Origin: Chloroflexota bacterium
GTDB lineage: Bacteria > Chloroflexota > UBA6077 > FW602-bin22 > JAMCVK01
Assembly (NCBI GenBank): GCA_023475225.1
Contig: JAMCVK010000028.1
Coordinates: forward strand, 9,962 to 73,961
Direction of reading: 5' to 3'
Length of the DNA stretch: 64,000 nucleotides
Both the position numbers and the translations under genes were made by a program. This document shows positions 6,739-23,732 of this stretch, one piece after another; position 1 is the stretch's first letter; every line of letters starts with the position of its first letter. The notes below the pieces were generated by a model. The model worked only from the letters and a program-made list of their open reading frames with translations, ran no database searches and was not told the origin of the DNA.

Positions 6739-6932
6739 GGGTGGCTGTAATCAAACAAAGCGAATGTGTCGGCAAGTGGTGCACCGCTTGTGCTGAGGCC
6801 TGTCCAAATCAGGCCATAGATGCTAGCGGAGATATAGCTTTCGTTGATGTTAATGCCTGCGACGGCTGTGGAATATGCCTGGATGAGTGCCCCAACTGGG
6901 CCATAACCCTTGAGGAGACCGCTGATGCTTAG
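6735..6932 (+). CDS. Small 2x[4Fe-4S] ferredoxin.
   Basis: 65 aa with two cluster motifs, CvgkwCtaCaeaCP and CdgCgiCldeCP. The start overlaps the upstream stop as ATGA. Confidence 0.8.
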   Translation: MRVAVIKQSECVGKWCTACAEACPNQAIDASGDIAFVDVNACDGCGICLDECPNWAITLEETADA

Positions 6933-8070: not shown

Positions 8071-8808
8071 ATGACGTCGACAGACATCGAGAACGAACGC
8101 GCCTTTTTCGACCGCTTAGCCAGGTTGGATAGTTATTGTGAAAACACGGAATCGGACTTTGCCGAAATCTGTCACCGATTGCTTGACTCGTACGGGCAGC
8201 TACGCATATTGGACGTAGGATGTGGACTGGGCACTAATAGCCTTAGGTTGGCTAGGATGGGACACACCGTGATTGGCATTGACATCTCGTGGGAGGCTGT
8301 GAAGACGGCCGTAAGAAGGGCTCTTTTACAAGGATTGGATGCAAAATTTCTGGTGCAGGATGCGCGCTACCTATCCTTTCCACCGGATTCTTTTGACCTC
8401 TGTTTTTGCGGTGGTTTATTGCACCATCTCCCAGACCTTCAGCCCGTAGCACGGGAGCTCTTCTGTGTCCTGAAGGATGGGGGGATGGTATGCTCCTACG
8501 ATCCAAATGCCCTCCATCCCTACGTCCGGCTAGTACAGAAGTTGCGGGCATGGGGATTGGGCCGCAAGCGTCATACAAAGGAGGAACGTGCTCTTACTCC
8601 CGCGGAGATACAGGCCGGCTTCGCAGCCGCCGGTTTCAAGGACTTCCAATTTCAGACGATGATCTTTCTTTCCCAAAAGAAGAACGTCGTCTATCGGGAG
8701 ATATTATTACTGTTGCTGCGGATTTATTACAGGTTCGGGAACGGCTTAGGCAAAGGCAATGCCTTGCTAATGTCTTGTATCAAGAGGGGAAATCACCGAT
8801 CGAGATGA
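8071..8808 (+). CDS. Class I SAM-dependent methyltransferase.
   Basis: 245 aa. Motif I ILDVGCGLGTNS. Shine-Dalgarno-like AAGGAAG upstream. Confidence 0.75.
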   Translation: MTSTDIENERAFFDRLARLDSYCENTESDFAEICHRLLDSYGQLRILDVGCGLGTNSLRLARMGHTVIGIDISWEAVKTAVRRALLQGLDAKFLVQDARYLSFPPDSFDLCFCGGLLHHLPDLQPVARELFCVLKDGGMVCSYDPNALHPYVRLVQKLRAWGLGRKRHTKEERALTPAEIQAGFAAAGFKDFQFQTMIFLSQKKNVVYREILLLLLRIYYRFGNGLGKGNALLMSCIKRGNHRSR

Positions 8809-10283
8809 AAATACTTTTGCTGGTTCCACCGAAGGGTTATTATGCCCGAAGATATTCGCCGGAGAATACATTTCCCCATCTTGGGCTAGGTTACGTGGCC
8901 GCTAGCTTACGCCAGGCCGGCTTCGCTGTCGAGATTCTGGACGCTTACGTCAAGAGACTTTCCTGTAACGCTTTAGGACCGCTTTTGAAGCAGAAAAACC
9001 CAGATGTTGTAGGGGTGACCTTCACCACAGAGACACGCTTTGAAGGCTTTGAGACTATTCGCACGGCTAAACGCTCGTTACCAGGAGCGACCATAATCGC
9101 TGGCGGACCCCACGTCACCGCTGCGGCTGAAGATACGCTATTGCATATTCCCGAACTGGATATCATCGTCCGAGGAGAGGCTGAAGAAACAATCGTAGAA
9201 CTGGCCAGAACGCTACAATACGGGATGAGGCTGGAAACAATTCACGGTATATCGTACCGGCAAGATGGACAGATTCGACACAATCCGAATCGTCCCTGGA
9301 TAAAAGACTTAGATAGCCTACCCTTCCCCGCCCGCGATCTCTTTGACCCGAAGGACCATACTTATATCTTTGCCCTACCCGATGGCCATAAGGTCATCGC
9401 CACCAGCCTCGTCACTATGCGGGGATGCCCTTATCGGTGCAACTTCTGTTTTTCAAGTAGCATGTGGGGACACGCGGTTCGCATGAGGTCCCCCGAGAAC
9501 ATTCTCCAAGAAATAGATGAAATCGTTGATGGGTTTGGTATCAAGGGGATGTGGTTTTACGATGATACATTCACCATTGACCGAGCGAGAACGAAAGAGC
9601 TCTGCCAGCTGATCGTAGCGCATCACCCAGACATTCGATGGTATTGTCAAACTCGGGTAAATAACGTGGATAAAGAGCTGCTGGCCACGATGAAAGAGGC
9701 CGGCTGTTGCTATATTTCCTTCGGGGTGGAATCTGGTTGTCAGCGTATTATTGACCAAGTTGTAGACAAGCATATCCGACTGGAACAGGTGCGGAAGGCC
9801 GCCGCTTGGTGCAAGGAGTTGGACATCGCCGCCAATTTTACTTTCATTGTCAGTCATCCCGCTGAGACCATCACCGACGCTAGACAGACTCTTAACCTGG
9901 TAGCTGATCTTATGAAGGACCACGAGGTGAACATGGGGGTGATGAAGATTCACCCTGGCACTGAGATCGAGCGCATCGCCAGACTGAAGGGAATCTTGCC
10001 CAAGGACTTCTCCTGGGCAAAGGAGTACACAGATGAGGTTTTCGCCATGCCCCTGGAATTCGGCAGCGCACCCATATTTATGGATAAGATGAGTTGGTCC
10101 GAGATCAGCGCGCTGGTTATAGAGTACGCGGCTATGAAGAAGATCCCTATCTGGCAGAGGGTACCGCGGATACTGTCGAACATCCGCACTACAGCCGATG
10201 TGGTCCATTACCTGACCGCTCTCGTGTCCTATCTGAGGTATAATCTATCCCGCCTTATACCTATAAGGTCTAAACATGCCTAG
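8805..10283 (+). CDS. B12-binding-domain radical SAM protein, paralog of 2583..4031.
   Basis: The start at MKILLLVPPKG (ATG 8805) forms an ATGA overlap with the upstream stop. The listed 8406 start lies inside the methyltransferase gene. Motif RGCPYRCNFC. Shares LD.LPFPAR and GISYR..RHNP with the first B12-rSAM. Confidence 0.8.
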   Translation: MKILLLVPPKGYYARRYSPENTFPHLGLGYVAASLRQAGFAVEILDAYVKRLSCNALGPLLKQKNPDVVGVTFTTETRFEGFETIRTAKRSLPGATIIAGGPHVTAAAEDTLLHIPELDIIVRGEAEETIVELARTLQYGMRLETIHGISYRQDGQIRHNPNRPWIKDLDSLPFPARDLFDPKDHTYIFALPDGHKVIATSLVTMRGCPYRCNFCFSSSMWGHAVRMRSPENILQEIDEIVDGFGIKGMWFYDDTFTIDRARTKELCQLIVAHHPDIRWYCQTRVNNVDKELLATMKEAGCCYISFGVESGCQRIIDQVVDKHIRLEQVRKAAAWCKELDIAANFTFIVSHPAETITDARQTLNLVADLMKDHEVNMGVMKIHPGTEIERIARLKGILPKDFSWAKEYTDEVFAMPLEFGSAPIFMDKMSWSEISALVIEYAAMKKIPIWQRVPRILSNIRTTADVVHYLTALVSYLRYNLSRLIPIRSKHA

Positions 10284-10335
10284 GATCCTTACTATGGAAA
10301 GGAGTAATGCTTGAGCTATGGAAAGAGCGTTAAAT

Positions 10336-10453
10336 AACGGGGGTTCCAAGGGGCGTAGCCCCTTTGGCAGGGGTCTGGGGATGTGCCCCAGAGCACAAAA
10401 AGAAAGCCCGCAGGGCTACCTTGAACCCCACAGGGGGTTTGGGGGAGATATTC
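10336..10453 (+). repeat. Copy A of a GC-rich multi-hairpin intergenic repeat.
   Basis: Near-identical to 18023..18155. Hairpins: ccaaggggc/gcccctttgg (10346-10367), tctgggg/ccccaga (10374-10392), agccc/gggct (10405-10417), aacccc/ggggtt (10424-10439). In addition ggggttccaagg (10340-10351) is complementary to ccttgaacccc (10419-10429). Confidence 0.8.
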
Positions 10454-10509
10454 GACACCCTCATGGAAACACTAAAGAGCATAGCAGGGGCGCTGTTGCT
10501 GCCCTTTGG

Positions 10510-12038
10510 ATGGGAAGGAATCTCTTGCCCATGCTCTTTCTTTTTGTGGCCGCCCTTATACCACGAGCGCTGGATCTAGACAAGACTTTGCTTTTCGGCG
10601 CGTCGGTTTGGGTCGAGCGCGCCCAGCAGTTTTGGGCAGCCCTGGGCAGGTTAGACTTTGAAGGAACCTTCATCACCGGACACCCGGGTGTGATTAACAT
10701 GTTTCTTTATCGTTCATATAGGTTGGTCGCTGACCAATATCCGCAGACCCTAGCCCCTCAGGTGATACTCCTCGCCTTGCTAGTGCCCTGTGTGTATTGG
10801 CTCATGAAAGAAGTCACTGACGATACTGTTGTAGGTCTGGCAGCGGGGGTTTTCATCGCCTTCGATCCGTTCCTTATCGCCTTCGCCAGAAGCACTCTTC
10901 TCGATGGCCTGATGGGCATGATGGGGGGGTCTCGGTGACCTGCTATGCTGTCGCGGCGAAAAGACCTAATCTTGTCTACGTCTCAGGCTTTTTGCTTGGC
11001 CTCACCATTCTCAGCAAGCTTCAAGGCTTTATGGTGGCTGGGGTACTCGTTGGCTGGGAGCTGTTCCACATCATTGTGTCAGATCTAAGAGCCGGTTATG
11101 GTTGGAGGGGCACGGCCAGGCTGGCCAAGACATCATCGGCCAAACTGGCGAAGGTCGCTGCCACTTCCATGATGACGATCTGGTTACTCTGGCCCGTCTT
11201 GTGGAGTGACCCGCTGCGGACTTTTCGCGAATTATTGGACGCCGCTATTATGTCAACCACCGTTGACCACGGTGTCCCAATACCTTTCCTGGGACAGTTG
11301 AATAACGACCCTGGCCCTCTTTATTACGCCGTCACGATGCTCATTCATCTGACACCCATCACTCTCGTTCTCTCCTTGGTAGGATCATATGTGGTGGCGC
11401 GTCGATTCTGGCATCGCTCATGGGAGCACTCATTCCTGTTGGTCTTTTTCGGCGCTGCCTTTCTCGTCTTGGCCACCATGGTGGCCCACAAGGCCGACAG
11501 ATATATAATGCCTGTCTACCCTGTCACTGATATCCTTGGCGGAATCGGCGCGGTAGCGCTTCTGCGCCACCTTCGACTTCCAAATCTGCTCTTCAGCGTT
11601 GTACTCGTCGGTTTGATGCTGGCCCACTCGGTTCCTGTCATCTTCACACATCCGGACTATGTGGTTTATGCTAATCCCCTGCTGGGCGGGACAGCAGGGC
11701 AATCATGGATTATGCATTATGGCTATGGAGCAGGATATAGAGAGGCCTTCGAGTATCTAAACTCAAGGGAGGGGATTGATGAAAAGAAGATCTGGCTTGT
11801 GTACCCCGTTTTCGATTTCGCCACCTTCTACTCTGCGAGAGGCAAGATAGTATCATTAGACTCTCGGAGTGCCATAAGCAAGCAGCCAGCCGAGAAGCTT
11901 CCCGACTACATAGTCGTGGACGCTGTCACCCTCATGCGCGGCTTTGTGCCACCCGACCTTAAGGAGCAAGCTCTTGACCACGCGGTCAGCTTCGGCAGTG
12001 TCCCCTTCGTGTGGATATATAGGGTCGATAATAAATAA
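10510..12038 (+). pseudogene. ArnT/PMT-like (GT-C, GT39/83-type) polytopic membrane glycosyltransferase homolog, interrupted by a frameshift in a G7 run. This is either a true pseudogene, a phase variant or a sequencing error.
   Basis: ORFs 10318..10938 and 10935..12038 are in different frames. They read through as ..ARSTLLDGLMGMMGG / VSVTCYAVAAKRPNLVYVSGFLLGLTILSK if one G is added to the run at 10923-10929. The DE motif seen in the paralogs (FWGDE) is replaced by FGAS. Confidence 0.55.
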
Positions 12039-12958
12039 TGATGTTGAGCAAAGATCATCTTAAAGAGAGACAGGCGAGCGATGTCTATGCGGCCCATTGG
12101 GAGCAAAGGCCATCGGTAGATTTTGCTGCTACTTCTATCCCTAAAACCATAAAGATGTCCAAGGTAACAAGATTTATAGATAGTCTAAGATTACCCCCAA
12201 AAGCAAGGGCGCTGGATATTGGTTGCGCTGATGGTCTTTATTTGGCCCTGCTCGCACAACGGAACTTTGAAGTGGTGGGTGTAGACTACGTATGGCCAAA
12301 TGTATCTAAAGCTATCCTCCAAACCAAGGATATAAAAGGCAACCTGGGTATCATACAAGGCGATGCAGAAAGGCTGCCCTTCGCCACTGGCGTCTTCGAC
12401 TTGTGCACGCACCTTGCTGTACTGGAGCATTTGCCTCACCCCGAAGAAAGCCTGGCTGAGTGTTCAAGAGTGCTTAGAGATGGCGGACATTTAGTCTTAT
12501 ACACCTGTAACGATAAACAGCCCTTTTTCCTGGCTTTACGAAGAATGCTTGCCCCTAAGAGTCACGTCCGTTGGTGGAATAGTTTAGGGCATTCCCCTGA
12601 GGGGTACTTTTCCGAGAGAAGACTCAAGGAGATGTTAATAAGAAATAGTTTGCGCCTGAAGACCGTGCAGTATAACCATGCTTTGTTCTCATACATCTAC
12701 GATTTATGCCTTTTTCAGTGGCTGCTCAAGATAGGTAACGAATTGCTATTGAGGAGACGAAAGCCCGGCCCCGACAGGTTGAGCGGCTATAATAGCCTTA
12801 TTAAACTTTACAATAGTCTAATATATCCACTGCTACAGATACTGGATGGATTGGATCACATATTGTTTTACCGCTACAGATGTAGTTTTTCTATATTGAT
12901 TGTTGCGGAAAAGGTAGCTAAGGATAAATGCTTACATCCCTTAGACGAAATCTACTAG
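12038..12958 (+). CDS. Class I SAM-dependent methyltransferase.
   Basis: 306 aa. Motif I ALDIGCADGLY. Motif post-I/II region GDAERLPFATGVFDLC..LEHL. Confidence 0.7.
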   Translation: MMLSKDHLKERQASDVYAAHWEQRPSVDFAATSIPKTIKMSKVTRFIDSLRLPPKARALDIGCADGLYLALLAQRNFEVVGVDYVWPNVSKAILQTKDIKGNLGIIQGDAERLPFATGVFDLCTHLAVLEHLPHPEESLAECSRVLRDGGHLVLYTCNDKQPFFLALRRMLAPKSHVRWWNSLGHSPEGYFSERRLKEMLIRNSLRLKTVQYNHALFSYIYDLCLFQWLLKIGNELLLRRRKPGPDRLSGYNSLIKLYNSLIYPLLQILDGLDHILFYRYRCSFSILIVAEKVAKDKCLHPLDEIY

Positions 12959-13929
12959 TATTACAGTTACTGGCTGGAGGGTTACTGCTCGTCTTAATTC
13001 TCTCCCGTCTGGATATGGCGAAGCTGGGCAGAATATTCCAATCGGCAGATTATCGCTATATCTTACTGGGAATAGCCTTGTTCGTTGTCAGCACCCTCAT
13101 TGACACCTACCGCTGGCAGATATTTGTGAAACCACTAGGAGTAGCAGTCTCATTACGACGACTCTTCGCCTATTACTACATAAGTCTGCTCCTGGGTATG
13201 TTTTTGCCTGGTAAACTGGGACAGGATTTGACCCGCATCGTTGCCCTATCTCGATCCAGCAAGCACAACGTGGAATCAACCGCTTCGGTGCTCATGGTCA
13301 GGTTTATGGGCATCGTCGCCTTATCCCTGATAGCCTCGCTCTCCCTCGTGTTATCCTGGCCCCTGGTGAGACATACCAACATCACTATCGGCGTAATCGT
13401 CTTGTGCCTGATCTGTGGCACTGGACTTATAGTCTTATTCAATAAGCAGTTATCAGCCAGGATCTTTCACCTGACCTTCGGAGTATCAGTTTGGGATATG
13501 AAAGACATCGCTGAGCGATCGTACACTAGCCTCTCTCTTTATCGGGAGCCCAGGGTCTTGCTCAAGGGGTTGGGGCTGTCCATCGCCACCCATCTTGTGG
13601 CCATAAGCTACACCTATACCCTATCCTTAGCCGTGGGACTGAACACCTCATTTCTCATTTTCCTAAGCGTCATCCCGCTGATTACGGTAGCTTCGATGAT
13701 TCCCGTGACCTTTCAAGGCATTGGGGTACGTGAGGGTGCCTTTGTCTATATATTCAGTCAATTGGGTATAATGGCTGAAAAGGCCTTCGCCCTATCCCTA
13801 ACAACCTACCTGCTTTCCATCCTGAGTGCATTGATAGGCATAGTGGCCTATTTCTCGCTGGTTATGCGGGCCGAAACGCAACCGATTGCTGACCTACCGG
13901 CGTCAGAGACCAGGATCACATCCAGGTGA
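12928..13929 (+). CDS. Flippase-like polytopic membrane protein (lysylphosphatidylglycerol-synthase TM-region / UPF0104-like).
   Basis: 333 aa with about 8 hydrophobic segments. The N-terminal pattern (LxxxxLxxIFxxADYRYILLGIALFVVSTLIDTYRWQIF) is typical of this family. Confidence 0.6.
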   Translation: MLTSLRRNLLVLQLLAGGLLLVLILSRLDMAKLGRIFQSADYRYILLGIALFVVSTLIDTYRWQIFVKPLGVAVSLRRLFAYYYISLLLGMFLPGKLGQDLTRIVALSRSSKHNVESTASVLMVRFMGIVALSLIASLSLVLSWPLVRHTNITIGVIVLCLICGTGLIVLFNKQLSARIFHLTFGVSVWDMKDIAERSYTSLSLYREPRVLLKGLGLSIATHLVAISYTYTLSLAVGLNTSFLIFLSVIPLITVASMIPVTFQGIGVREGAFVYIFSQLGIMAEKAFALSLTTYLLSILSALIGIVAYFSLVMRAETQPIADLPASETRITSR

Positions 13930-13985
13930 CTTGAGACTATTGAGCAACGAGGATTCCCAAATGAAAGCGGGGCAACTCAAGACAA

Positions 13986-16900
13986 ATGCGTAAATCTCAA
14001 CTATTGAATAAAATAAGCCACCAAAATAGGGCGGTTGGGCTGGCGGAGAGGAGACAGCTGCTCGACGGTCTACTCGCCGTAGGGGTGATCACCTATGGCC
14101 TGCTCGTATTGATTCGGGTACAACGCCTCCCTCTGGTACCATTCGACCTCGACTACTTAGCGATAGCCCTCTTTCTGGTAGCTCTCAGTCTATGGCTGGT
14201 AGGCTGGCTGGGCAAAACCGGCGAGCGCTGGTGGCCAAGCAGCAGCCGAATCGCCTCCTCACTGCTGCTTATAACCATACTCAGCGCTGACCATATGACG
14301 GCTATGCTCCCTGTGCGCAGTAACGTACTTTCTATAGCCCTCACCTTCTTTGTCCTTATGCTTGTCTGGGCATCCCAAAAAGAGCTCCAGTCCCTCTGGA
14401 AGAGGGCAGTTGGGCTGGCCCTTATGCTTGGCTGGGCATCCCAAAAAGAGCTCCAGTCCCTCTGGAAGAGGGCAGTTGGGCTGGCGGAGAGGGGCTGCAC
14501 CACACTCACCGAAAGACCATCAGTAGTGACAGCGGCTCTCCTACTCGTTTACCTTGCAATCCGCCTATGGCTGAATCGTACCTGGATCGGCAACGATGAG
14601 GGCAATATGGTCTACGACGCCAAGCTGATCGCTGAGGGATACGTGCCCTTCCGAGACTTCGTCGCTCGGGGCACTCCCCTTATCTATTTCTATGCTCTTT
14701 TCGTGAAGCTGTTTGGCGCCAACATCTACGTCATCAAGACCGTAAATGCTTTCCTCTCTACAGCGATAGTTTATGTCATCTACCTGATCGGAACAGCCTT
14801 ACACAGTCGACGAGCCGGGCTACTGGCTGCTCTACTCTACGTCCTCTCACCCATCGTCCTCACTATTCAGACCCTCATCCTAGTCTTTGTCCAGACCGGA
14901 TTACCAGTCAGCCTGGGCGCCTATTTCTTCATTAAAAGTGAGGCGACCTCCTACCGCCGCCCCCTGTTCCTCTCAGGCTTGTTCCTCTCCCTCTCGTTTT
15001 TCACCGCCGCCAGTTCCTTGCCCTTTATGCTGTCGCTGCCGCTAGTTTTAGGTCTGTGTCGCTATCGCCGAGGCATCCTTGATTTCGCCCGGCGCCTGGG
15101 CTATTACCTGGCTGGTATTCTTGTCCCTGCCTTAGCCATTTTCGGTTTTTATACCTGGCATCTTGGCTTCCCCGCCGGTGTTTGGAAGCCCCTCGACATC
15201 TCCGAGGTGGGACAAAATATGCCTCGCCTCTCCAGCGAAGGTACCATTTACAACTGGACCTTGGGGACAACACTCAGTACCTATCTGCTCGCCCTGGCTC
15301 TGGTGGCCCTAATCTATATATTTATGACCAGGCGTTCTCATCTCTACTTCGCCGGTCTACTGCTCGCTGCTTGGTTCTTTTCCGCCCTCAGCGTGTACAT
15401 CTGGTATTCGTTCCAGGTAGGCTTCTTTAACGATTACACCATCGAATTTATGTCCCCTCTAAGTCTTCTGGCTGCTCTCTTTGTGACGGAGATCAACAAA
15501 GTGACGCTGGATCGACAGATGCCTAAGACGGTCAACCTCCTCACTGCCCTCTTGGTTATCTTCTCTCTAGTCTCTATACCAATAGAACCGGTCCAGTCCA
15601 GCAGGGGGACTGTCTCTTATGGAAGCATCTTCGGCAGTGGCATCATGCCAGACACCCTAGAAAAGGTAACTCGATACCTAAAGCCTAGAGTTAAGCCGAA
15701 TGATGAAATTGCCGCCTGGGCCTTGCAATATCCCTTGCAAGCGGGTTGCCGACAGCTTATGGACATCAGTCATCCCCTTATTTATGATGGCAACGCTAGG
15801 CTAGCCGAAGCTATGGGCTCCTATAGCCGGGCAGATATCATTGAGCACTTCGCCACTCGTAACGTGAAATACGTCGTTGAGGATGGACTCCGCCCTGCCT
15901 TTCCCTTCCTGGATGACATCAGGGATCTCACCTACCGTCTGGTGACGATGATTGACGAGGTGCGCATTTATAAAAGGGTGAACGACGATGCCTTCGCCAA
16001 GGCGGCGCGTTTCGTTCAGGAGCACCACCAGGATGGCGATATAGTCGTCTCCAGTTCGATGTGGGCCAAACAGTTCCTCGGCAAGTATGACTACTTCGCC
16101 ATGCAGAAAGACTATAAGAAGTACATCTTAATCGACGGCGACCAGATGGTCGATATGGGGCAGGGCGCCCCCCTCCTTTCCGACGTACGAGAACTGCGGA
16201 ATGTCCTGAGCCGGAATCAGCGGGTATGGTTGCTTGCTGTAAGGGGTAGGCTTACAGCCTCCTTTATGGAGTACGTTAAGTCTAGGATGACGCTCGTCTA
16301 TCAGGTCGGAACTGTGGAGGTGTACGTCTCAGATAAGACCGAAGCGTGGCCGGCGATAGAGCGAAAGAAACTAGGGGTATTGCTCGCGAATGGTAGTTTT
16401 GAAGATAGGGATGGCGATGGCTTGCCCGATGGCTGGGATACGTTAGACTGGAAGGGGTCAACACAGGTGTACGGCCTTGAACGCAAAGATGGACGAGATG
16501 TGGCCAGGATAGAGAAGACAAACGAGAGCGGTGGGGCAGCATATGTCCAATATCTTCCCCTATTTCCCGGACAGCAATACCACCTCCGTGGCTACGCCAA
16601 GGGAGCGGAGTCCCGCATCTACATTGAGTATTGGGATAACAGATGGCAATACTTTAACAATGATATAGTTAGCCCTGTAGAGAGTGGGCTCTTCACCCCC
16701 TCACTCGACTGGCAGTCGTTTTCTTTCGAATTTACAGCCCCCCTGGAAGCAGCCACAGCTCGGGTAGCCCTGGCCATCACAGGGCCTGGTACAGCTTGGT
16801 TCCGAGACGTCGCCCTGGAAGAGGCTCAGGTTTATGAAGAGAAAGACCCCAGCGGTTCTTTCTCCGCCAATGGCTTCATCGAACTGGGAGATATTTACCG

Positions 16901-17924
16901 GTCTGATGGCGACTCGGAGACCGCAGAGAAGGCGTATATGAAGGCTATCCTCCTCGACCCTGAGGCCAGCCTGGCTTATACTGGCTTGGGCGATCTGTCC
17001 CTGGATAAAGGAAGTGCGGAGGAAGCGATATCCTGGTACAAAAGGGCCGTGGCTGTGGGTACCCGCCCTTACGATGTGCACCTGCGCTTTGGCGACCTCT
17101 ATCGCTCGCTGGGGAGAGCAGGCGATGCAGCCACCCAGTATAAGCTGGCCGCATCCATCGCCCCTGAGGATCCCTGGATTCGCCTGAGGCTGGGCGACCT
17201 GGCCAAGGGGCAGGGCCAAACGGATCAGGCCGTAAACTATTATAAAGAGGCCATCTCCCTGAACCCCAAATTGGTCTGGGGATATCAAAGATTGGGTGAG
17301 ATGGCTATGGATAAAGGCGACCTCGCCACAGCACGCCAGTACTATGAGAAGGCGTTATCCCTAAATCCTAAATTTTCCTCGGCTCTGGTTAGACTGGGTG
17401 ATATCGTCAAGGAGCAGGGACGAACGGAAGAGGCAACTCAGTATTATCAAAAAGCCATAGAGACTGATCCGGGTCAGTTTTGGGGTTATCTGAGACTGGC
17501 TGAAATAAGCCGAGCTAATGGTGACGTGGAGAAGGCCAAGTCGTATTATAAGCAGGCTGCCTCTCTCGATCCTAGATCACCCTACGCCTTCGTGGCTCTC
17601 GGCGATATCTATCGGAACACGGGGGAAATGAATAAGGCCATAGCCCAGTATGAGAAAGCGGCTCAGGTAGCCCCCAATATGGTTTGGCCATACGTTGGCC
17701 TGGGAGAGTGCTACCGAAGCCTAGACCGGCTGGAAAAGGCAGAGGATATGTATAAAAGGGCAATTCAAATCGACCCCAATAACTTCTGGGCCCACTTCGG
17801 CCTGGCCCAAACCCTCCAGGCCCAGGGCAGAACAAGCGAAGCCATCGCCCAGTACCAGGAGGCCCTCAAGATAGACCCCAGCAACACCTGGGCCCAAAAT
17901 GCGCTGAAACAATTGCAGCCATAA
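13986..17924 (+). CDS. Giant multidomain protein: N-terminal polytopic ArnT/PMT-like (GT-C) membrane domain, a conserved globular domain, a CBM4_9-like domain and a C-terminal TPR array.
   Basis: 1312 aa. Many TM segments. Acidic loop motif IGNDEGNMVYDA. Middle region is paralogous to ORF 1..1247. NGSFED...AWFRDVALEE is CBM-like. More than 10 TPR-type 34-aa repeats (..A..Y.KA..L.P....A...LG..Y). Confidence 0.75.
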   Translation: MRKSQLLNKISHQNRAVGLAERRQLLDGLLAVGVITYGLLVLIRVQRLPLVPFDLDYLAIALFLVALSLWLVGWLGKTGERWWPSSSRIASSLLLITILSADHMTAMLPVRSNVLSIALTFFVLMLVWASQKELQSLWKRAVGLALMLGWASQKELQSLWKRAVGLAERGCTTLTERPSVVTAALLLVYLAIRLWLNRTWIGNDEGNMVYDAKLIAEGYVPFRDFVARGTPLIYFYALFVKLFGANIYVIKTVNAFLSTAIVYVIYLIGTALHSRRAGLLAALLYVLSPIVLTIQTLILVFVQTGLPVSLGAYFFIKSEATSYRRPLFLSGLFLSLSFFTAASSLPFMLSLPLVLGLCRYRRGILDFARRLGYYLAGILVPALAIFGFYTWHLGFPAGVWKPLDISEVGQNMPRLSSEGTIYNWTLGTTLSTYLLALALVALIYIFMTRRSHLYFAGLLLAAWFFSALSVYIWYSFQVGFFNDYTIEFMSPLSLLAALFVTEINKVTLDRQMPKTVNLLTALLVIFSLVSIPIEPVQSSRGTVSYGSIFGSGIMPDTLEKVTRYLKPRVKPNDEIAAWALQYPLQAGCRQLMDISHPLIYDGNARLAEAMGSYSRADIIEHFATRNVKYVVEDGLRPAFPFLDDIRDLTYRLVTMIDEVRIYKRVNDDAFAKAARFVQEHHQDGDIVVSSSMWAKQFLGKYDYFAMQKDYKKYILIDGDQMVDMGQGAPLLSDVRELRNVLSRNQRVWLLAVRGRLTASFMEYVKSRMTLVYQVGTVEVYVSDKTEAWPAIERKKLGVLLANGSFEDRDGDGLPDGWDTLDWKGSTQVYGLERKDGRDVARIEKTNESGGAAYVQYLPLFPGQQYHLRGYAKGAESRIYIEYWDNRWQYFNNDIVSPVESGLFTPSLDWQSFSFEFTAPLEAATARVALAITGPGTAWFRDVALEEAQVYEEKDPSGSFSANGFIELGDIYRSDGDSETAEKAYMKAILLDPEASLAYTGLGDLSLDKGSAEEAISWYKRAVAVGTRPYDVHLRFGDLYRSLGRAGDAATQYKLAASIAPEDPWIRLRLGDLAKGQGQTDQAVNYYKEAISLNPKLVWGYQRLGEMAMDKGDLATARQYYEKALSLNPKFSSALVRLGDIVKEQGRTEEATQYYQKAIETDPGQFWGYLRLAEISRANGDVEKAKSYYKQAASLDPRSPYAFVALGDIYRNTGEMNKAIAQYEKAAQVAPNMVWPYVGLGECYRSLDRLEKAEDMYKRAIQIDPNNFWAHFGLAQTLQAQGRTSEAIAQYQEALKIDPSNTWAQNALKQLQP
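14354..14485 (+). repeat. Two-copy 66-bp in-frame tandem duplication inside the 13986 gene.
   Basis: 14354-14419 and 14420-14485 differ at a single base (t/g). They encode LMLVWASQKELQSLWKRAVGLA / LMLGWASQKELQSLWKRAVGLA. Confidence 0.95.
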
Positions 17925-18022
17925 GATGTAGCCAAGAGAGATGCTCACTCGTCATTGCCATCGCCATACCTCTGCTGAGGAGGGCAAGCCAGCAGGCTTG
18001 GGGGTTAGGGAGATTGTTGAAC

Positions 18023-18155
18023 AACGGGGGTTCCAAGGGGGCGCAGCCCCTTTGGCAGGGGTCTGGGGATGTGCCCCAGAGCACAAAAAGAAAGCCCGCA
18101 GGGCACCTTGAACCCCCTGCGGGGGTTTGGGGGAGATGGTTTGGGGGAGATATTC
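18023..18155 (+). repeat. Copy B of the GC-rich multi-hairpin intergenic repeat.
   Basis: Aligns base for base with 10336..10453 apart from a few substitutions and an internal 15-nt duplication (gatggtttgggggagat). It ends 28 nt before the 18183 start codon. Confidence 0.8.
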
Positions 18156-18182
18156 ATCACTCTCCTAGGGAGCTAAGAACCC

Positions 18183-19424
18183 ATGCGCATCCTTATGTTA
18201 AACCATAACGTTGTCTGGCGCAGCACCTTCTATCGCTGTTTTAACTTCGCCAAGCAGCTGGTCAGGAGGGGGCACGAACTCACGGTGGTGACCATTTCAC
18301 CCATCAGGCGCATGGGTTTCAAGGAGTATTTCCAAGACGGCGTCAAGATCGTTGAATCGCCTGATACGCTCTGGGGAATCATGCGCACCGGTTGGGACCC
18401 CTGGGATACCCTCATGCGATTGCTCCGCCTGCGCCACGAGCCCTACGATTTAGTGCATGGCTTTGATTGTCGTCCAGTAGTTATCTTCCCTTCCCTTTTC
18501 ACTAAAAATAAATGGGGGATACCCTTCGTCTCCGACTGGGCCGATTGGTGGGGGAAGGGAGGGGTCATCGAGGAGCGACCAAATAAATTAATCAAGATCT
18601 TCTTTGGAGCAGTAGAGACCTACTTCGAGGAGGGCTTCCGCCATAAGGCTGATGCTCTAACAGTGATCAGTACGGCCCTGCGGGAACGAGCCAGGGGGCT
18701 CGGTATACCAGCGGAGAGGATCCTCCATCTTCCTGGCGGGTCCGACGTCGAAACCTGGATACCGTTACCAAAGGATAAAGTAAGGGCCGAGGTGGGGCTC
18801 TCACCAGATGATAAGGTGGCGGCCTTCTCTGGCTTCGTCCACTATGACCTGGAGCTGGTCCTGCGCTCATTTGGCAAGGTGTGTCAAACTTTCCCCAAAG
18901 CGAGGCTCATCCTTACAGGCCAGAGCTCGCCCCTGACAGGCAAAATAGGGAGGGAGATGGACATCGTTGATAACATCATGGACTTGGGCATCGTCCCTTA
19001 CCAGGAGGTGGGCAAATACGTCTCTTGCGCCGACGTTTGCCTCTTGCCCTTCGCCAATAAAATTGCTAATATTGGGCGCTGGCCAAATAAGGTGGGCGAC
19101 TATATGGCCCTGGGACAGCCGATCGTCTCTAACCCCGTCGGTGATATAAAGACCCTATTTGAGAGCGAACGCATCGGATTACTAGCCCAGGATAACGCCG
19201 AGGACTTCGCCGCCAAGATCGTTCAGCTACTTGATGATCCTCATTTGGCCGCGGAGATGGGGGAGAATGCCCGCCGAGTGGCCTTAGAAAAATATTCCTA
19301 TGAGCAATTGGCCCGTCGCCTGGAGAATTATTATCACACTATCCTTGATTCCAAAGGCTCCACCATCGGCGATGTGGGGATGCTTAGCAACAGAGGTGGA
19401 CAGGGGTCTGGGAGCGTCCCCTAG
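18183..19424 (+). CDS. Glycosyltransferase, GT4 family.
   Basis: 413 aa. MRILMLNH... N-terminus and a GT-B C-terminal half (..ADVCLLPF...). The last ~10 codons run into repeat copy C. Confidence 0.75.
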   Translation: MRILMLNHNVVWRSTFYRCFNFAKQLVRRGHELTVVTISPIRRMGFKEYFQDGVKIVESPDTLWGIMRTGWDPWDTLMRLLRLRHEPYDLVHGFDCRPVVIFPSLFTKNKWGIPFVSDWADWWGKGGVIEERPNKLIKIFFGAVETYFEEGFRHKADALTVISTALRERARGLGIPAERILHLPGGSDVETWIPLPKDKVRAEVGLSPDDKVAAFSGFVHYDLELVLRSFGKVCQTFPKARLILTGQSSPLTGKIGREMDIVDNIMDLGIVPYQEVGKYVSCADVCLLPFANKIANIGRWPNKVGDYMALGQPIVSNPVGDIKTLFESERIGLLAQDNAEDFAAKIVQLLDDPHLAAEMGENARRVALEKYSYEQLARRLENYYHTILDSKGSTIGDVGMLSNRGGQGSGSVP

Positions 19425-19462
19425 CGGATCCAAAAACGAGACCAAAGGGCACCCTGAACCCC
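19401..19462 (+). repeat. Copy C (degenerate, partial) of the multi-hairpin repeat.
   Basis: caggggtctggga..cccctag...aaaaacgagaccaaagggcaccctgaacccc matches caggggtctgggg..ccccagag..aaaaagaaagcccgcagggcaccttgaacccc in copies A and B. It lies 53 nt upstream of the 19515 start. Confidence 0.6.
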
Positions 19463-19514
19463 TTTTACGGAGGATGATGAACAACCTCTGAATACTTTAG
19501 GGAGGTACTTCGCC

Positions 19515-22500
19515 TTGCACGATACTCAACAAAGCGGCAGTGACCGATCAACCGTTCCAGCCGCTAAAATGACCACGTTCATAGACCGCCTCAAGCAAGT
19601 GGTAAAGGGTGAAACCTTGTTGCTACTCACCCTCCTAGCCCTGGGAACAGCCCTCCGTATCTACGGATTGGACGCCAAGAGCTTCTGGGGCGATGAGATA
19701 ATCGTGATGAACGATACTCACCTTGCCAACTACTGGCAGCGCATGTGGGGGCGCCTTGATCCCATCCTCGGTAACGCCGTAATTTACCTCTTTGTACACC
19801 TACGGGAAAATGAATTTACGGCCAGGCTGCCGGCGGCCATCTCCGGCATCGTGATGATCTTCCTCGCCTATAAGCTGGGGAGGCTGCTCTTCAACAAAGA
19901 GGTGGGGCTACTCAGTGCCTTCCTCCTGGCCATCTCCACTTTTCATATCGAGTATTCGCAAGAGGCGCGCTATTACGCCTTCTATGGCATGCTCGCCTTG
20001 TTATCTCTCTACTACTTCTTCCGCGCTATTGCTGATAACCGGATGACGAACTGGATTGGCTACGCCGTTTCGACCACATTGTGTATGTACACTCATATAT
20101 TTACCTTCACCCTGGTAGCCAGCCAGGTCATCCTCTTTGCCCTTCTGTTCCTGGCCGACAGGAGCACCATCCGACGCTGGCTCGCTTTCAATGACGTCAG
20201 ATGGAAAACAGTCCTGGGATTTGGACTGAGCCTGGTCAGCATCTTCGTCGCCAGCCTACCCTGGCTTATGTCAACACCTCTCTTGAAGGTCGGCCTGGGC
20301 CTCACCCCCATCGCCATCATCCAGCACGGCATGGCTGGAAGCGGACCGGGCACGCCCTATGCCAGGTTCAGCCTCGATCTTCTCCAGAACACCTTCCGTG
20401 AATTCAGCAACGATTTCACCCTGTATGGAATCGCTTTTCTCATTGGTTTGGTCGCTTCTATCCGAAGACAACGGGAAAAGGGGCTATCCCTGCTCCTGCT
20501 GACCATCCTGACCATCTGGTTCATCGTTTTGGCTATGCAGGCCGTGGGCGAGTACTTTGCCGTTCGCCGCATCCTCTTCCTGTTGCCACTTGTCCTCATT
20601 CTCGTGGCCAATGGCATAGCCGAGCTGGCTCGCTTGATCAGATTCCTGACCCGACGCTACGTATTGGTTCACCAATACGCCCTGGCCGCCGTCTTCACTA
20701 TCGCTGTCGTCCTATTCACTGGCCTGAGCGTACCTCAATTGAGAGAGTATTACCTATCCCCTAAGGTTCAGGACTGGAGAGCTTTGGCCCACTTCCTGGA
20801 GGCCAACGTTCAACCTGGCGATGCGGTGTTCGTCTCCTCCGCACAGGAATACCCATACCTAACTTACTATTACAAAAGCAAAGTTTTGGATCACCCTGGG
20901 GACCTGGCCCAGATCCAGTCAAAATATGAGAGGGCGTGGCTGGTCTATGGTTACTGGGGAGCAGGGAAGTCCGAACAGCGATGGCTTGACCATAATGCAG
21001 CGGCCATTCCCTTCGCTGGCACTTATCTCTATTATGTTGGGCCGGAGACACATAAAGTGGGAACGGCCATTGATAAGGGCATCTCTTTGTTAAAAGAGGC
21101 CCTCAAGATAGCACCTAATGGCTACGCCTTACACGTTGCTCTGGGTGACCTCTACCTCATACGCGGCGAGACAGAAGAGGCGATCAAGGAGTACCGGGCT
21201 GCGCTTGATGTCTATTCAGCCTATGTTCCAGCGCACATGGCCTTAGGCAGGGCCTACCAGGCACTGGGGCAGCTGGATAAGGCTATGGATGAATATAGAG
21301 CAGTCATCAGGATGTATCCGCAGTCGGCTGGCGCATATGGCGGACTCGTATCGGTTTATGTTAAGGCTGGCCAATTAGACAAGGCCCAGGAGGTCGCTGA
21401 TGCTGCAGCTCGCTCGTGCACGGAGGGGAGCGGTCCGGCCTGGATTCATGTCTTCCTTGGCAATGTCTATCAAAGCAAGGGAGAGTCAGATAAAGCTATC
21501 GCCATATGGGAAAAGGCGGTATCCCTTGACCCCGAGGGAACGGCAGCCGCCCAGGCGCATACGGCTCTGGGCCATCGCTACCTCGAGAGAGGGGATCTGA
21601 ATCGGGCCATTCAGAAGTTCGGCGCAGCAGTCAAAATAAATCCTGATCAGGCTGATGGCCACCGCGGGTTGGCCGTTGTCTACCTGAGGCAGGGGATGAC
21701 AGCTGAGGCCATCGAAGAGTACAAGAAGGTCATAGAAAACGATCGATATTCAGTATGGGGCTATCTAGCGCTGGCTGATATTTACCGCTCTCAGGGCAAG
21801 GCAGATGAGGCCATCGACCTGTACCGTACAGTGATAGCCATCAATCCCAAGATAATAGCCTCCTATGTAGGCTTGGGTGAGAGCTATAAGATAAAGAAAC
21901 AGTGGGAAGAAGCCATCGCCGCATATAATAAGGTCCTGGAGATGGACCAGGATAACGCCCTCGCCTATAGAGGGTTGGGTGATGCCTATCAAGGGCTCGG
22001 CCGGCTGGATGAGGCCATCGCTCGCTACCAAAAGGTGCTCTCCGCCGACCCAGTTAATGAGTGGACCAACTACGGATTGGGCGAGCTCTACCTTAAACAG
22101 GGAAACATGGCCGAGGCCATAAACGCCTTCCAGAAGACTCTCCAGACCAACCCCCAGAACCAGTGGGCCCACCTCAGATTGGGAGAGACCTATGAGAAGC
22201 AGGGGAAGATAGACCTGGCAGAGAAGGAGTATCGCCAGACCCTTGCCGCTGACCCCAACAACGAGTGGGCCAACCTCCACCTGGGCAAACTGTACGAACA
22301 GAAGGAGAGGCTGGATGAGGCCACCGCCGCCTATAAGAAGGTGCTCACCATCAACCCAGCCAACGCCGAGGCCAAACGGGAGCTCCATGGGCTCAGCAAC
22401 GCCTACCGGCTTGCGGCCGATGCCTACAAGTCCCAGGGAAGAATAGCTGAGGCTATAGCCACCTATAAGAAGAGCCTCGACGCCGAGCCGGATAACGAGT

Positions 22501-23732
22501 GGGCCAACTACGGGCTGGGCGAGCTCTACCTCAAACAGGGGAATATCGCCGAGGCCATAAACGCCTTCCAGAAGACCCTCCAGACTAACCCCCAGAACCA
22601 GTGGGCCCACCTCAGATTGGGAGAGACCTATGAGAAACAAGACAAACTAGACCAGGCCATCGAAGAGTACCAGAAGGTCCTCGAATCCAATCCCAACAGC
22701 GAGTGGGCCAACCTCCACCTGGGCAAACTGTACGGCCAAAAGGAGAGGCTAGATGAGGCCACCGCTGCCTATCAGAAGGTGCTCACCCTCAATCCTGATA
22801 ATCAAGAGGCCAGGCAGGGATTGCTTGCCGTAGCCAGCGCCTACCGCACCCAAGGTGATGCCTATAGACAAAAGGGGCAGCTGCCCGAGGCCATCAGCGC
22901 CTATCAGAAAAGCCTCAGCCTTGATACAGAGAACGAATGGGCCAACTATGGGCTGGGTGAGGCCTATTTCCAGATGGGACACGCCACCGAGGCCATAAAC
23001 GCCTTCCAGAAGACTCTCCAAACTAACCCCCAGAACCAATGGGCCCACCTCGGATTGGGAGAGATCTATGAGAAGCAGGAGAAGCTCGACCAGGCTATCG
23101 ACGAGTACCAAAAGGCCCTCAAGGCCAACCCCAACAGCGAGTGGGCCAACCTCCACCTGGGCAACATCTACGCCGGGCAGGAGAAATTGAATGAAGCCAC
23201 CACCTTCTATAAGAAGGTGCTCACCATCGACCCAGCCAACACCGTGGCCAAACAGGGGCTCCAGGGGCTCAGCAACGCCTACCGGCTGCAGGCCGACGCC
23301 TATAAGGCCCAGGGGAAGATGGCTGAGGCCATAGCCACCTACAAGACGAGCCTCTCCACCGACCCGACTAATGAGTGGGCCAACTACGGGCTGGGCGAGC
23401 TCTACCTCAAACAGGGGAATATCGCCGAAGCCATAAACGCCTTCCAGAAGACTCTCCAAACTAACCCCCAGAACCAATGGGCCCACTACGCCCTCGGTGA
23501 GGCCTACCGGAGCCAGGACAAGATCGCTGAGGCTGTGCAGGAATATCTGAAAACCATCGAGATCAATCCCGAGAATGAGTGGGCACACTATAGGTTGGGC
23601 GATATCTATTGGATTCAGGGCAAAAGAGCCGAGGCCATCGCTGAATACAAGAAGGTTCTAGCTATCAATCCGCAAAATGGACCGGCTCAACAAGCCCTAC
23701 AAAGGCTTTTGGCTCAAGGCACAAACCCATAA
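19515..23732 (+). CDS. ArnT/PMT-like (GT-C) polytopic membrane domain fused to a very long TPR array (TMTC-like architecture).
   Basis: 1405 aa. TTG start 9 nt after AGGGAGG. N-terminal ~400 aa are polytopic with LDAKSFWGDE in the first loop. The rest is TPR repeats. Confidence 0.75.
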   Translation: MHDTQQSGSDRSTVPAAKMTTFIDRLKQVVKGETLLLLTLLALGTALRIYGLDAKSFWGDEIIVMNDTHLANYWQRMWGRLDPILGNAVIYLFVHLRENEFTARLPAAISGIVMIFLAYKLGRLLFNKEVGLLSAFLLAISTFHIEYSQEARYYAFYGMLALLSLYYFFRAIADNRMTNWIGYAVSTTLCMYTHIFTFTLVASQVILFALLFLADRSTIRRWLAFNDVRWKTVLGFGLSLVSIFVASLPWLMSTPLLKVGLGLTPIAIIQHGMAGSGPGTPYARFSLDLLQNTFREFSNDFTLYGIAFLIGLVASIRRQREKGLSLLLLTILTIWFIVLAMQAVGEYFAVRRILFLLPLVLILVANGIAELARLIRFLTRRYVLVHQYALAAVFTIAVVLFTGLSVPQLREYYLSPKVQDWRALAHFLEANVQPGDAVFVSSAQEYPYLTYYYKSKVLDHPGDLAQIQSKYERAWLVYGYWGAGKSEQRWLDHNAAAIPFAGTYLYYVGPETHKVGTAIDKGISLLKEALKIAPNGYALHVALGDLYLIRGETEEAIKEYRAALDVYSAYVPAHMALGRAYQALGQLDKAMDEYRAVIRMYPQSAGAYGGLVSVYVKAGQLDKAQEVADAAARSCTEGSGPAWIHVFLGNVYQSKGESDKAIAIWEKAVSLDPEGTAAAQAHTALGHRYLERGDLNRAIQKFGAAVKINPDQADGHRGLAVVYLRQGMTAEAIEEYKKVIENDRYSVWGYLALADIYRSQGKADEAIDLYRTVIAINPKIIASYVGLGESYKIKKQWEEAIAAYNKVLEMDQDNALAYRGLGDAYQGLGRLDEAIARYQKVLSADPVNEWTNYGLGELYLKQGNMAEAINAFQKTLQTNPQNQWAHLRLGETYEKQGKIDLAEKEYRQTLAADPNNEWANLHLGKLYEQKERLDEATAAYKKVLTINPANAEAKRELHGLSNAYRLAADAYKSQGRIAEAIATYKKSLDAEPDNEWANYGLGELYLKQGNIAEAINAFQKTLQTNPQNQWAHLRLGETYEKQDKLDQAIEEYQKVLESNPNSEWANLHLGKLYGQKERLDEATAAYQKVLTLNPDNQEARQGLLAVASAYRTQGDAYRQKGQLPEAISAYQKSLSLDTENEWANYGLGEAYFQMGHATEAINAFQKTLQTNPQNQWAHLGLGEIYEKQEKLDQAIDEYQKALKANPNSEWANLHLGNIYAGQEKLNEATTFYKKVLTIDPANTVAKQGLQGLSNAYRLQADAYKAQGKMAEAIATYKTSLSTDPTNEWANYGLGELYLKQGNIAEAINAFQKTLQTNPQNQWAHYALGEAYRSQDKIAEAVQEYLKTIEINPENEWAHYRLGDIYWIQGKRAEAIAEYKKVLAINPQNGPAQQALQRLLAQGTNP
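22056..23732 (+). repeat. 438-bp (146-codon, four-TPR) super-repeat, about 3.8 copies, inside the 19515 gene.
   Basis: The NEW(A/T)NYGLGE codons recur in frame at 22056, 22494, 22932 and 23370. Long stretches are near-identical at nucleotide level, for example around 22497-22637 versus 23375-23480. Confidence 0.9.

Follow-up and report, generated by a model that had tools for sequence, protein, structure and literature searches.

A short G+C-rich element occurs in three copies (A, B and C) on one strand of a glycan gene cluster in a Chloroflexota metagenome-assembled genome (MAG). The DNA analysed, here called the window, is the 64,000-nucleotide stretch of contig JAMCVK010000028.1 from position 9,962 to position 73,961. 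We propose, with a probability of roughly 65%, that the element represents one lineage's variant of a family of modular intergenic repeats that are non-coding and form hairpins, and that it is a mosaic comparable in type to the bacterial interspersed mosaic elements (BIMEs) or to BOX elements. Its 5′ half would be a two-hairpin module, and its 3′ half would consist of an A-rich linker, a third and a fourth hairpin and a G-rich tail. The family is previously undescribed, but it is of an ordinary kind, akin to repetitive extragenic palindromes (REPs) and BIMEs or to BOX.

Copies A and B are direct repeats on the plus strand, as recovered by alignment and in repeat-finding families D5, D8 and D14. 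They are nearly identical, as the first-pass annotation of this DNA had stated: a global alignment has 121 identical positions in 128 ungapped columns (94.5%), plus 17 gap columns, 13–14 of which come from a tandem duplication of GGTTTGGGGGAGAT in B. The copies and the duplication lie as follows:

10309..10464 (core 10336-10462), plus strand: copy A, full extent of the A/B similarity (nhmmer profile positions 1-156, E = 4e-48; families D5, D8 and D14)
17996..18166, plus strand: copy B, full extent (nhmmer E = 4.6e-47; covariance model, 69 bits; folds)
18124..18151, plus strand: GGTTTGGGGGAGAT duplicated in tandem within the copy B tail (A/B alignment)
19371..19470, plus strand: copy C, a decayed full-length copy with hairpin 2 partly left (anchor motifs, nhmmer and covariance model)

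The similarity between A and B found by nhmmer spans about 155–170 nt, longer than the first-pass annotation gave. Because it extends past those earlier coordinates, the distance from the end of the copy to the start codon is 45 nt for A and 16 nt for B, not 56 and 27 nt. The copies do precede genes of their own orientation, as had been said, but the spacing of 28–57 nt attributed to them does not hold for A and B. A degenerate tail-like stretch lies 5′ of B near 18000-18018 (alignment of the flank with the tail; 4 of 1,000 shuffles score as high). The element has 63–68% G+C, against about 52% in the window. Neither nhmmer nor the covariance model found a fourth copy on either strand of the 64-kb window, and no copy was found in about 18 kb of adjoining source-genome sequence. 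Logan contigs assembled from short reads are interrupted within A and B. At copy A, contig L034 begins exactly where predicted; contig L001 (SRR10278331) starts at 18108, 32 nt later than A as the sole other copy predicts, so that the sample may contain one more B-like copy or a strain variant.

Copy C had been taken for a degenerate partial copy that supplies the last codons of a GT4 glycosyltransferase gene. It is degenerate and it does supply those codons, but it is a decayed full-length copy. The anchors GGGGTCTGGG..CCCNAG and GGGCACCYTGAACCCC stand in C at the 44-nt spacing that they have in A and B (chance expectation 0.03 and 0.6 matches); nhmmer finds C with E = 4.8e-7, and the unfiltered covariance model matches 19371-19431 over its full length (E = 0.007). 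The first ~54 nt of C are the 3′ end of the GT4 coding sequence, whose last ~16 codons including the stop (window 19377-19424) derive from the decayed copy, and the stop codon itself (19422-19424) lies inside the remnant of hairpin 2. The last ~20 residues of the GT4 protein (STIGDVGMLSNRGGQGSGSVP) run past the end of four of the five aligned homologues. In folds of C, hairpins 1, 3 and 4 are lost and hairpin 2 is partly kept. The GT4 C terminus and copy C make a small case of a repeat remodelling a gene end. As part of the interpretation proposed above, and judged from the state of the copies, A and B would be young, whereas C would be old, a decayed copy part of which now belongs to the 3′ end of the GT4 gene.

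The four consecutive hairpins that the first-pass annotation had drawn on paper are all recovered by RNAfold in copy A, and a closing helix appears in both A and B. The fold of copy A has a predicted energy of −61.6 kcal/mol (z = −2.8), and none of 200 shuffled sequences is as stable. The parts are:

10346..10367, plus strand: hairpin 1 of copy A, CCAAGGGGC-GTA-GCCCCTTTGG (RNAfold; family covariation)
10372..10394, plus strand: hairpin 2 of copy A, TCTGGGG-ATGTG-CCCCAGA (RNAfold; family covariation)
10395..10404, plus strand: A-rich linker of copy A, ACAAAAAGAA, unpaired in the minimum-energy fold
10405..10417, plus strand: hairpin 3 of copy A, AGCCC-GCA-GGGCT (RNAfold; compensatory change in the L018 homologue introduced below)
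10419..10444, plus strand: hairpin 4 of copy A, CCTTGAACCCC-ACAG-GGGGTTTGGGG, 11 bp including 3 G–U pairs (folding of both strands)
10445..10464, plus strand: 3′ tail of copy A, GAGATATTCGACACCCTC (family D14; fold)
18033-18055, 18060-18082, 18094-18104 and 18106-18132, plus strand: hairpins 1 to 4 of copy B (folds)

Hairpins 1 (22 nt) and 2 (19–23 nt), at −13 to −20 kcal/mol, are stem-loops of the kind expected of REP-type palindromes of 20–40 bp. The tail motif ACCCTC can form the closing helix with the 5′ GGGGGT at 10339-10344.

The 5′ half of the element belongs to a family found well outside the window. A two-anchor pattern scan of metagenomes returned one diverged full-length homologue (L018:1029-1174), which starts 12 nt after the thrS stop codon and lies between thrS and a zinc-ribbon open reading frame (ORF) in a 62% G+C organism other than the source; the same contig carries a second copy of the 5′ half alone (L018:1755-1820). 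With a six-frame translation of the element as protein query there was one match only, P0001, a spurious 428-aa ORF across a tandem array of 81-nt units with hairpins 1 and 2 in each; called proteins evidently include no near-identical copy of the variant seen in the window. P0001 as query gave 22 similar ORFs, several per megabase-size contig, and 56 in the 1.84-billion representative set. With a covariance model of hairpins 1 and 2, 90 copies are found on both strands of 195 kb of fetched DNA, and A and B score 64–69 bits. Four of the fetched loci (L019–L022) hold dozens of module copies per 20 kb in both orientations, many of them in 81–83-nt tandem arrays, and the arrays sit in divergent, convergent and co-directional spacers. 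About 8–12 units occupy each of three orthologous spacers (L019:10010-10968, L021:6744-7398 and L022:10024-10787) between acyl-CoA dehydrogenase and Abhydrolase_10 genes, with a 322-nt higher-order period.

The settings of the 5′ module are diverse: the glycan operon in the window, the position after thrS in L018, aromatic-catabolism loci (L019–L022 and L032) and a site by moaE (L033). Such intergenic placement at unrelated loci in more than one genome is what characterizes repeats of the BIME or BOX type. The full-length form is found only as A, B, C and L018:1029-1174. The 5′ module stands alone at L018:1755-1820 and in the arrays, and in other composites it is combined with another spacer, another hairpin 3 (CCCCTTCC..GGAAGGGG) and a GGGGGATGGT tail. 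These alternative composites occur as single copies in the spurious ORFs P0164, P0165, P0174 and P0180 and at locus L033, and also at L019:10918-10989 and in L022. Because the 5′ module thus appears alone, with the 3′ module of the window or with another 3′ module, the family is modular, as BIME- and BOX-type repeats are.

Two side observations concern the arrays. Those in L019, L021 and L022 resemble variable number tandem repeats (VNTRs) and yield spurious ORFs of 250–430 aa. A different hairpin, GATTGCTTCGCTGCACTCGCAATGAC, stands by the arrays at L019:11085-11115 and L022:10890-10920 and shows up in spurious ORFs as the peptide CFAALAMT. It resembles a widespread intergenic palindrome of other phyla, so the array spacers of these two loci are shared with a second repeat family.

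Searches for a known counterpart were negative. The first-pass annotation had recognized no known RNA family, and Rfam 15 in gathering mode gives no hit on the window or on L018–L022; in E-value mode, the best score for copy A is 15.5 bits, against a threshold of 58.6 bits. A scan with GGGGTCTGGGGNNNNGCCCCAGAGC of representative genomes, among which the source species apparently does not figure, returned 16 loci, all of them chance matches confined to the pattern (blastn), and a scan of viral contigs with the module core returned no match. Nothing in the literature found on Chloroflexi repeats or MITEs (miniature inverted-repeat transposable elements) describes this family, and a literature search on the core sequence led to the human insulin VNTR alone. 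That match, between the core CAGGGGTCTGGGG (10368-10381 and 18056-18069) and a variant unit of the human insulin-linked VNTR, is coincidental. The human repeat is known to form G-quadruplexes and i-motifs; the G-rich strand of our element has many runs of four to five G, and quadruplex formation could compete with its hairpins.

The first-pass annotation had asked for a covariation check on collected copies, and hairpins 1 and 2 pass it clearly. RNAalifold on a MAFFT alignment of 62 module copies gave no structure, because insertions and deletions had shifted the arms out of register; we therefore used a covariance model with the stated structure and realigned the copies. In the resulting alignment of 78 distinct hairpin 1 and 2 copies, which is fitted to the covariance model and includes many copies related within arrays, pairing extends to 85.8% of cells; shuffles give 80.5 ± 0.4% and slid controls 32–58%. 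Both sides have changed in 12 of the 18 pairs, and none of 500 shuffles reaches the observed covariation. Helix 1 is 93% paired with two-sided changes in five pairs, and helix 2 is 77% paired with two-sided changes in seven of its eight pairs. Covariation this strong suggests that the structure of hairpins 1 and 2 is under selection. The modelled strand has 87 G–U pairs against 13 A–C mismatches, indicating that the hairpins form better on the G-rich strand, which is the sense strand in the window.

For the 3′ module, the comparison covers A, B, C and L018:1029-1174. All four keep the linker motif AAAAA-N-GA. Hairpin 3, with AGCCC/GGGCT in A, has ATCCCC-GAA-GGGGAT in L018, a compensatory replacement. 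The earlier remark that the last hairpin differs between A and B while keeping its stem is borne out, with one extra C–G pair in B, and L018 keeps the outer 9 bp with their three G–U pairs. Hairpin 4 is weaker by 4–8 kcal/mol on the minus strand (in A, −17.0 kcal/mol on the plus strand and −9.1 on the minus strand). L018 retains part of the tail but not the closing helix.

One of the two interpretations in the first-pass annotation was a cis-regulatory leader RNA shared by glycan genes, similar to a riboswitch, in which CCTTGAACCCC would pair either with the 5′ arm GGGGTTCCAAGG or within hairpin 4, and these exclusive pairings would gate a Shine–Dalgarno-like GGGGGAG or termination. Every copy does lie upstream of a same-strand gene, and the alternative pairing is energetically feasible in both A and B: the GGGGTTCCAAGG:CCTTGAACCCC duplex has −18.9 kcal/mol in A and −22.2 in B, and the alternative fold is about 4 kcal/mol less stable than the minimum-energy one. 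In L018, however, the duplex is interrupted and falls to −11 kcal/mol, and the GGGGGAGAT run reads GGGGGTGTT, so that neither the pairing nor GGGGGAG is conserved. The GGGGGAG run also sits about 65 nt (A) and 30–45 nt (B) 5′ of the start codons, too far to act as the Shine–Dalgarno sequence of those genes, and a separate GGGAG, outside the repeat, belongs to the gene that follows B. A site scan of A, B and C found no promoter-like or terminator-like site on the sense strand of the element; the G+C-rich hairpin followed by a U-tract that makes an intrinsic terminator is absent from the plus strand of all three. Nor is there a conserved expression platform, given the missing sense terminator, the distant Shine–Dalgarno-like run and the weak pairing in L018.

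The genomic context argues in the same direction. The copies lie within the operon, outside its 5′ leader, and the 5′ half is a high-copy repeat present in both orientations. A riboswitch would be expected to precede one class of gene across genomes, but the L018 homologue lies between thrS and the zinc-ribbon ORF, and the closest GT4-homologue loci (L027–L031; 57–61% identity, best 61%) have spacers of 0–60 nt with no copy of the element. Rfam, its E-value mode included, offers no leader family. The element is not specific to glycan genes and is probably not a ligand- or signal-responsive switch; the leader interpretation is already largely refuted, and we regard it as very improbable.

On the minus strand, hairpin 3 is followed by TTTCTTTTT and resembles an intrinsic terminator (scan hits in A at 10434..10407 and 10417..10405), and a hairpin with a T-tract is also present on that strand in B and L018. 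The element could on this basis be an antisense terminator or insulator that stops antisense or convergent transcripts entering the glycan operon. To this we give the least credence: no minus-strand genes or promoter-like sites lie nearby, all genes from 27 to 39037 being on the plus strand; the stem has only 4–6 bp; and the spacer of the other composites is T-rich on the opposite strand, so the feature is no constant of the family.

If the element is a mosaic interspersed repeat, as we propose, A and B would have been placed into two intercistronic spacers by transposition in trans, recombination or gene conversion. The arrays and the duplication in B would be consistent with slippage, recombination or gene conversion, and the strand asymmetry with a transposase that acts in trans and is specific for single strands. 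The shared orientation of the copies would be a matter of survivorship, in which the orientation without a sense-strand terminator was tolerated in an operon: a sense strand that lacks a hairpin and U-tract leaves the operon uninterrupted, whereas the reverse orientation would put hairpin 3 and TTTCTTTTT on the sense strand. The footprint in the window is insertion-like, with A and B in the longest non-coding gaps of the cluster and a G+C content above that of the surrounding DNA. Once co-transcribed, the hairpins around the unpaired A-rich linker would probably be passive exonuclease barriers or a processing site, which would shift the relative amounts of upstream and downstream cistrons, as is the case with REP, BIME and BOX. 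BOX, BIME, ERIC and Correia elements alter the expression of co-transcribed genes (PMC3049150); in E. coli, REP stabilizes upstream mRNA and attenuates transcription within the operon (bioRxiv 10.64898/2026.03.23.713779); and protective structures in operons have precedent (PMC5927463).

Several observations weigh against this interpretation. The ~82 kb of source genome hold three copies, all within 9 kb, on one strand and each between a stop and a start codon, and the pattern would be no different for a regulatory element specific to this locus. The abundant copies belong to other uncultured genomes. Among the window proteins scanned and the fetched loci there is no transposase or REP-associated tyrosine transposase (RAYT) gene, target-site duplication or empty orthologous site, and the best GT4 homologue available for comparison is 61% identical. 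The strand asymmetry, seen in the 87 G–U pairs against 13 A–C mismatches and in the 4–8 kcal/mol by which hairpin 4 is more stable on the plus strand, is what a sense-strand RNA function would give; G-rich composition or recognition of one DNA strand could give it too. In informative co-directional spacers, six copies run with transcription and one is opposed to it, which hints at a bias but is not significant.

These points bear on a second possibility, that the element is of dispersed origin but that the copies here are kept by selection as a domesticated RNA stability or processing module. It would be cleaved in the linker, with hairpins 1 and 2 protecting the upstream 3′ end and hairpins 3 and 4 the downstream 5′ end, and would set the stoichiometry of the glycan enzymes. 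The sense orientation common to A, B, C and both L018 copies agrees with this, as do the G–U excess (87 against 13), the linker motif kept in four of four full-length copies, the compensatory C/G insertion in hairpin 4 between A and B, and hairpin 4 itself, which is full length on the plus strand alone and keeps its G–U outer stem in L018; precedents exist (PMC5927463; bioRxiv 10.64898/2026.03.23.713779). Yet copy C has lost three of its four hairpins, indicating that structure was not maintained at that site, the GT4-homologue loci manage without such a spacer, and elsewhere the 5′ module opposes transcription, for example at L019:6685-7144. We therefore consider domestication a tentative and rather unlikely alternative. 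A bolder version would make the element the representative of a new class of strand-specific structured elements in Chloroflexota and related uncultured bacteria, spread by a mechanism that uses single-stranded DNA and no GTAG or CGTC tags, and domesticated here as a transcribed four-hairpin processing or stability module that sets cistron ratios in a very long cell-envelope glycan operon; this appears distinctly unlikely.

The other interpretation in the first-pass annotation, a small non-autonomous repeat, holds in so far as the 5′ half belongs to an abundant family with both orientations and tandem arrays, but not in the specific form of a MITE bounded by 12-nt arms. In that form, GGGGTTCCAAGG and CCTTGAACCCC would be terminal inverted repeats for a DDE transposase encoded by an insertion sequence (IS). 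The arms are near-perfect inverted repeats in A and B, and the size (about 100–150 nt), strong folding and intergenic position of the element are those of MITEs (PMC3049150). However, the A/B similarity runs 25–30 nt outside the 5′ arm and about 35 nt past the 3′ arm, which makes the arms internal, and L018 does not conserve them. The element is rich in G+C instead of A+T, the window contains no IS element, and the family forms head-to-tail arrays and not units bounded by terminal inverted repeats. Copies scattered in both orientations with target-site duplications had been named as the sign of a mobile repeat: the 5′ half does occur in both orientations and in many copies elsewhere, but no target-site duplication is visible, and neither candidate boundary of A or B has direct repeats. 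A classical MITE thus has very little probability.

Among known systems, the BIMEs and REPs of Enterobacteriaceae and Pseudomonas offer many parallels to our mosaic repeat. They are short G+C-rich imperfect palindromes of about 20–25 nt each in intergenic spacers, often internal to operons and just past a stop codon, and form mosaics with other short motifs; compensatory changes keep their hairpins, and their number and position vary among related genomes. Their known effects include mRNA stabilization and attenuation (PMC3733652; bioRxiv 10.64898/2026.03.23.713779). REP super-families, however, are defined by a GTAG/CGTC tag and by organization as inverted dimers (PMC3733652), and the family described here has no conserved GTAG or CGTC at the end of a hairpin. 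Its consensus before hairpin 1 is GGGAGTCCAG or GGGAGTGCAG, with a few copies reading GCGTCCAG; GTAG is found only in the hairpin-1 loop of copy A, where B has GCAG. The units run head to tail in direct arrays of 81–83 nt and not as inverted head-to-head or tail-to-tail dimers or REPINs, and hairpins 1 and 2 of the element, which differ in sequence, follow each other in direct order. Lacking both the tag and the inverted dimers, the family does not belong to REP proper. It further differs in having no sequence similarity to REP and a Chloroflexota host, and in that neither a RAYT gene nor a transposase domain was seen among the window proteins scanned and the gene calls of the fetched loci.

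The BOX elements of Streptococcus pneumoniae (boxA-boxB(n)-boxC) are likewise modular, with an internal module that is absent, single or tandem between terminal modules; they have extensive predicted RNA secondary structure and partially complementary 5′ and 3′ ends; and they are intergenic, co-transcribed with their neighbours, able to alter expression and capable of modifying gene ends by insertion (PMC3049150). The two are unrelated in sequence: BOX is A+T-rich and the window element G+C-rich, the module amplified here is the 5′ two-hairpin unit, the terminal complementarity of the window element is not conserved in L018, and there is no candidate mobilizing IS element. Mycobacterial interspersed repetitive units (MIRUs) are 40–100-nt units that lie between cistrons in operons, oriented with the genes, in direct tandem arrays of variable unit number, and they sometimes overlap flanking stop or start codons. 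Copy C, which supplies the GT4 stop codon, and the arrays of L019, L021 and L022, which vary in unit number like VNTRs, recall these. MIRUs differ in not being dominated by hairpins and in carrying small coupling ORFs, whereas no conserved ORF crosses the window element, as the frames open in A have stops in L018.

Polysaccharide leaders (JUMPStart/ops, LoaP-dependent leaders and the leaders in Rfam) share with the element that they are structured, non-coding sense-strand sequences in a polysaccharide cluster. The window copies are operon-internal, have no Rfam hit and are not glycan-specific. They carry no conserved ops-like motif, the hairpin-1 loop reading GGCGTAG in A and GGCGCAG in B, and the proteins scanned include no NusG paralogue; we rejected an ops/JUMPStart or LoaP leader on these grounds. 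Other candidates were also rejected. For an integron attC site, the GTTRRRY-like GTTAAAT and GTTGAAC at the 5′ border are at the wrong end, and there is no RYYYAAC partner, single long bulged hairpin or intI. For the template and variable repeat pair of a diversity-generating retroelement, the differences between A and B would have to be adenine-specific, which they are not, and no reverse transcriptase is present. A retron or CRISPR array is contradicted by the absence of a reverse transcriptase or cas gene and by array spacers that alternate between two types and are not unique. For an outward promoter in the tail (TTGAAC...GATATT), the spacer would measure 20 nt in A and more in B, and no hit came from the promoter scan. 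A small conserved ORF is excluded by the L018 stops, and a segmental duplication that includes the downstream gene by the end of the A/B similarity before the start codons.

The practical consequence of the family lies in annotation. It creates spurious ORFs of up to 428 aa (P0001) with recurrent peptides such as GSPEGRSPFGRGLGVSPR, lengthens real genes, as in the C-terminal tail of GT4, and breaks short-read assemblies, so that a model of the family would clean the annotation of Chloroflexota and related MAGs. An untagged hairpin repeat family that forms head-to-tail arrays, from a poorly studied phylum, joins the REP/BIME/BOX catalogue. With two apparently young copies and one decayed copy in a single operon, the locus is a test case for repeats that tune operon stoichiometry outside model organisms; no new principle in the regulation of glycan synthesis emerges from it.

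The GT4 protein is identical to MCL4460032.1 and MCL5075292.1, in keeping with the Chloroflexota MAG origin of the window. From 27 to 39037, the window is a single co-directional plus-strand cluster of 39 kb that encodes glycosyltransferases, methyltransferases, B12-binding radical S-adenosylmethionine (SAM) enzymes, two giant tetratricopeptide repeat (TPR) proteins and a Wzm/Wzt ABC exporter; in the remainder, the minus strand carries ccm, trmD, opp and gcvP genes. The window proteins scanned include no transposase domain. Spacers in the cluster are mostly shorter than 60 nt or are overlaps, and those with A (226 nt) and B (258 nt) are its longest non-coding gaps. Two apparent gaps, 6738-6910 and 37313-37650, hold small unlisted genes: a 65-aa 4Fe-4S ferredoxin-like ORF (L025 gene call) and a hydrophobic ORF of about 110 aa between two GT2 genes. 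The genes that flank the copies are:

8805..10283, plus strand: gene 5′ of A, B12-binding radical SAM enzyme (Pfam PF02310 and PF04055; start as in the L025 gene call)
10510..12038, plus strand: genes 3′ of A, PMT/GT-C-like membrane protein in two ORFs (weak PF02366 hit; L034 gene calls)
13986..17924, plus strand: gene 5′ of B, 1312-aa TPR protein (Pfam TPR families)
18183..19424, plus strand: GT4 glycosyltransferase between B and C, MCL4460032.1 (Pfam; exact protein match)
19515..23732, plus strand: gene 3′ of C, 1405-aa TPR protein (ORF list; L001 gene call)

The two PMT/GT-C-like ORFs, of 142 and 367 aa, overlap at GTGA (10935-10938). Paralogues of this protein 5′ of the window (L025/L026) are single 922-aa ORFs; the split could reflect two real genes, a frameshift or a pseudogene. 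Both TPR genes contain internal repeats. In the N-terminal part of the 1312-aa TPR gene, a 66-nt unit is tandemly duplicated at 14354-14485 with 98% identity (D7); the duplication is in frame (22 codons) and recent-looking, and a Logan contig ends within it. The 1405-aa TPR gene has four tandem 438-nt TPR-motif units at 21999-23612 with 71–80% identity (D1-D3), with the array reaching the other TPR gene at 17637-17894. Spread across the glycan cluster (2583-4031, 8805-10283 and upstream in L025/L026) are at least four B12-binding radical SAM paralogues, along with several SAM methyltransferases and two LPG_synthase_TM genes; the radical SAM content is unusual in amount for a polysaccharide locus.

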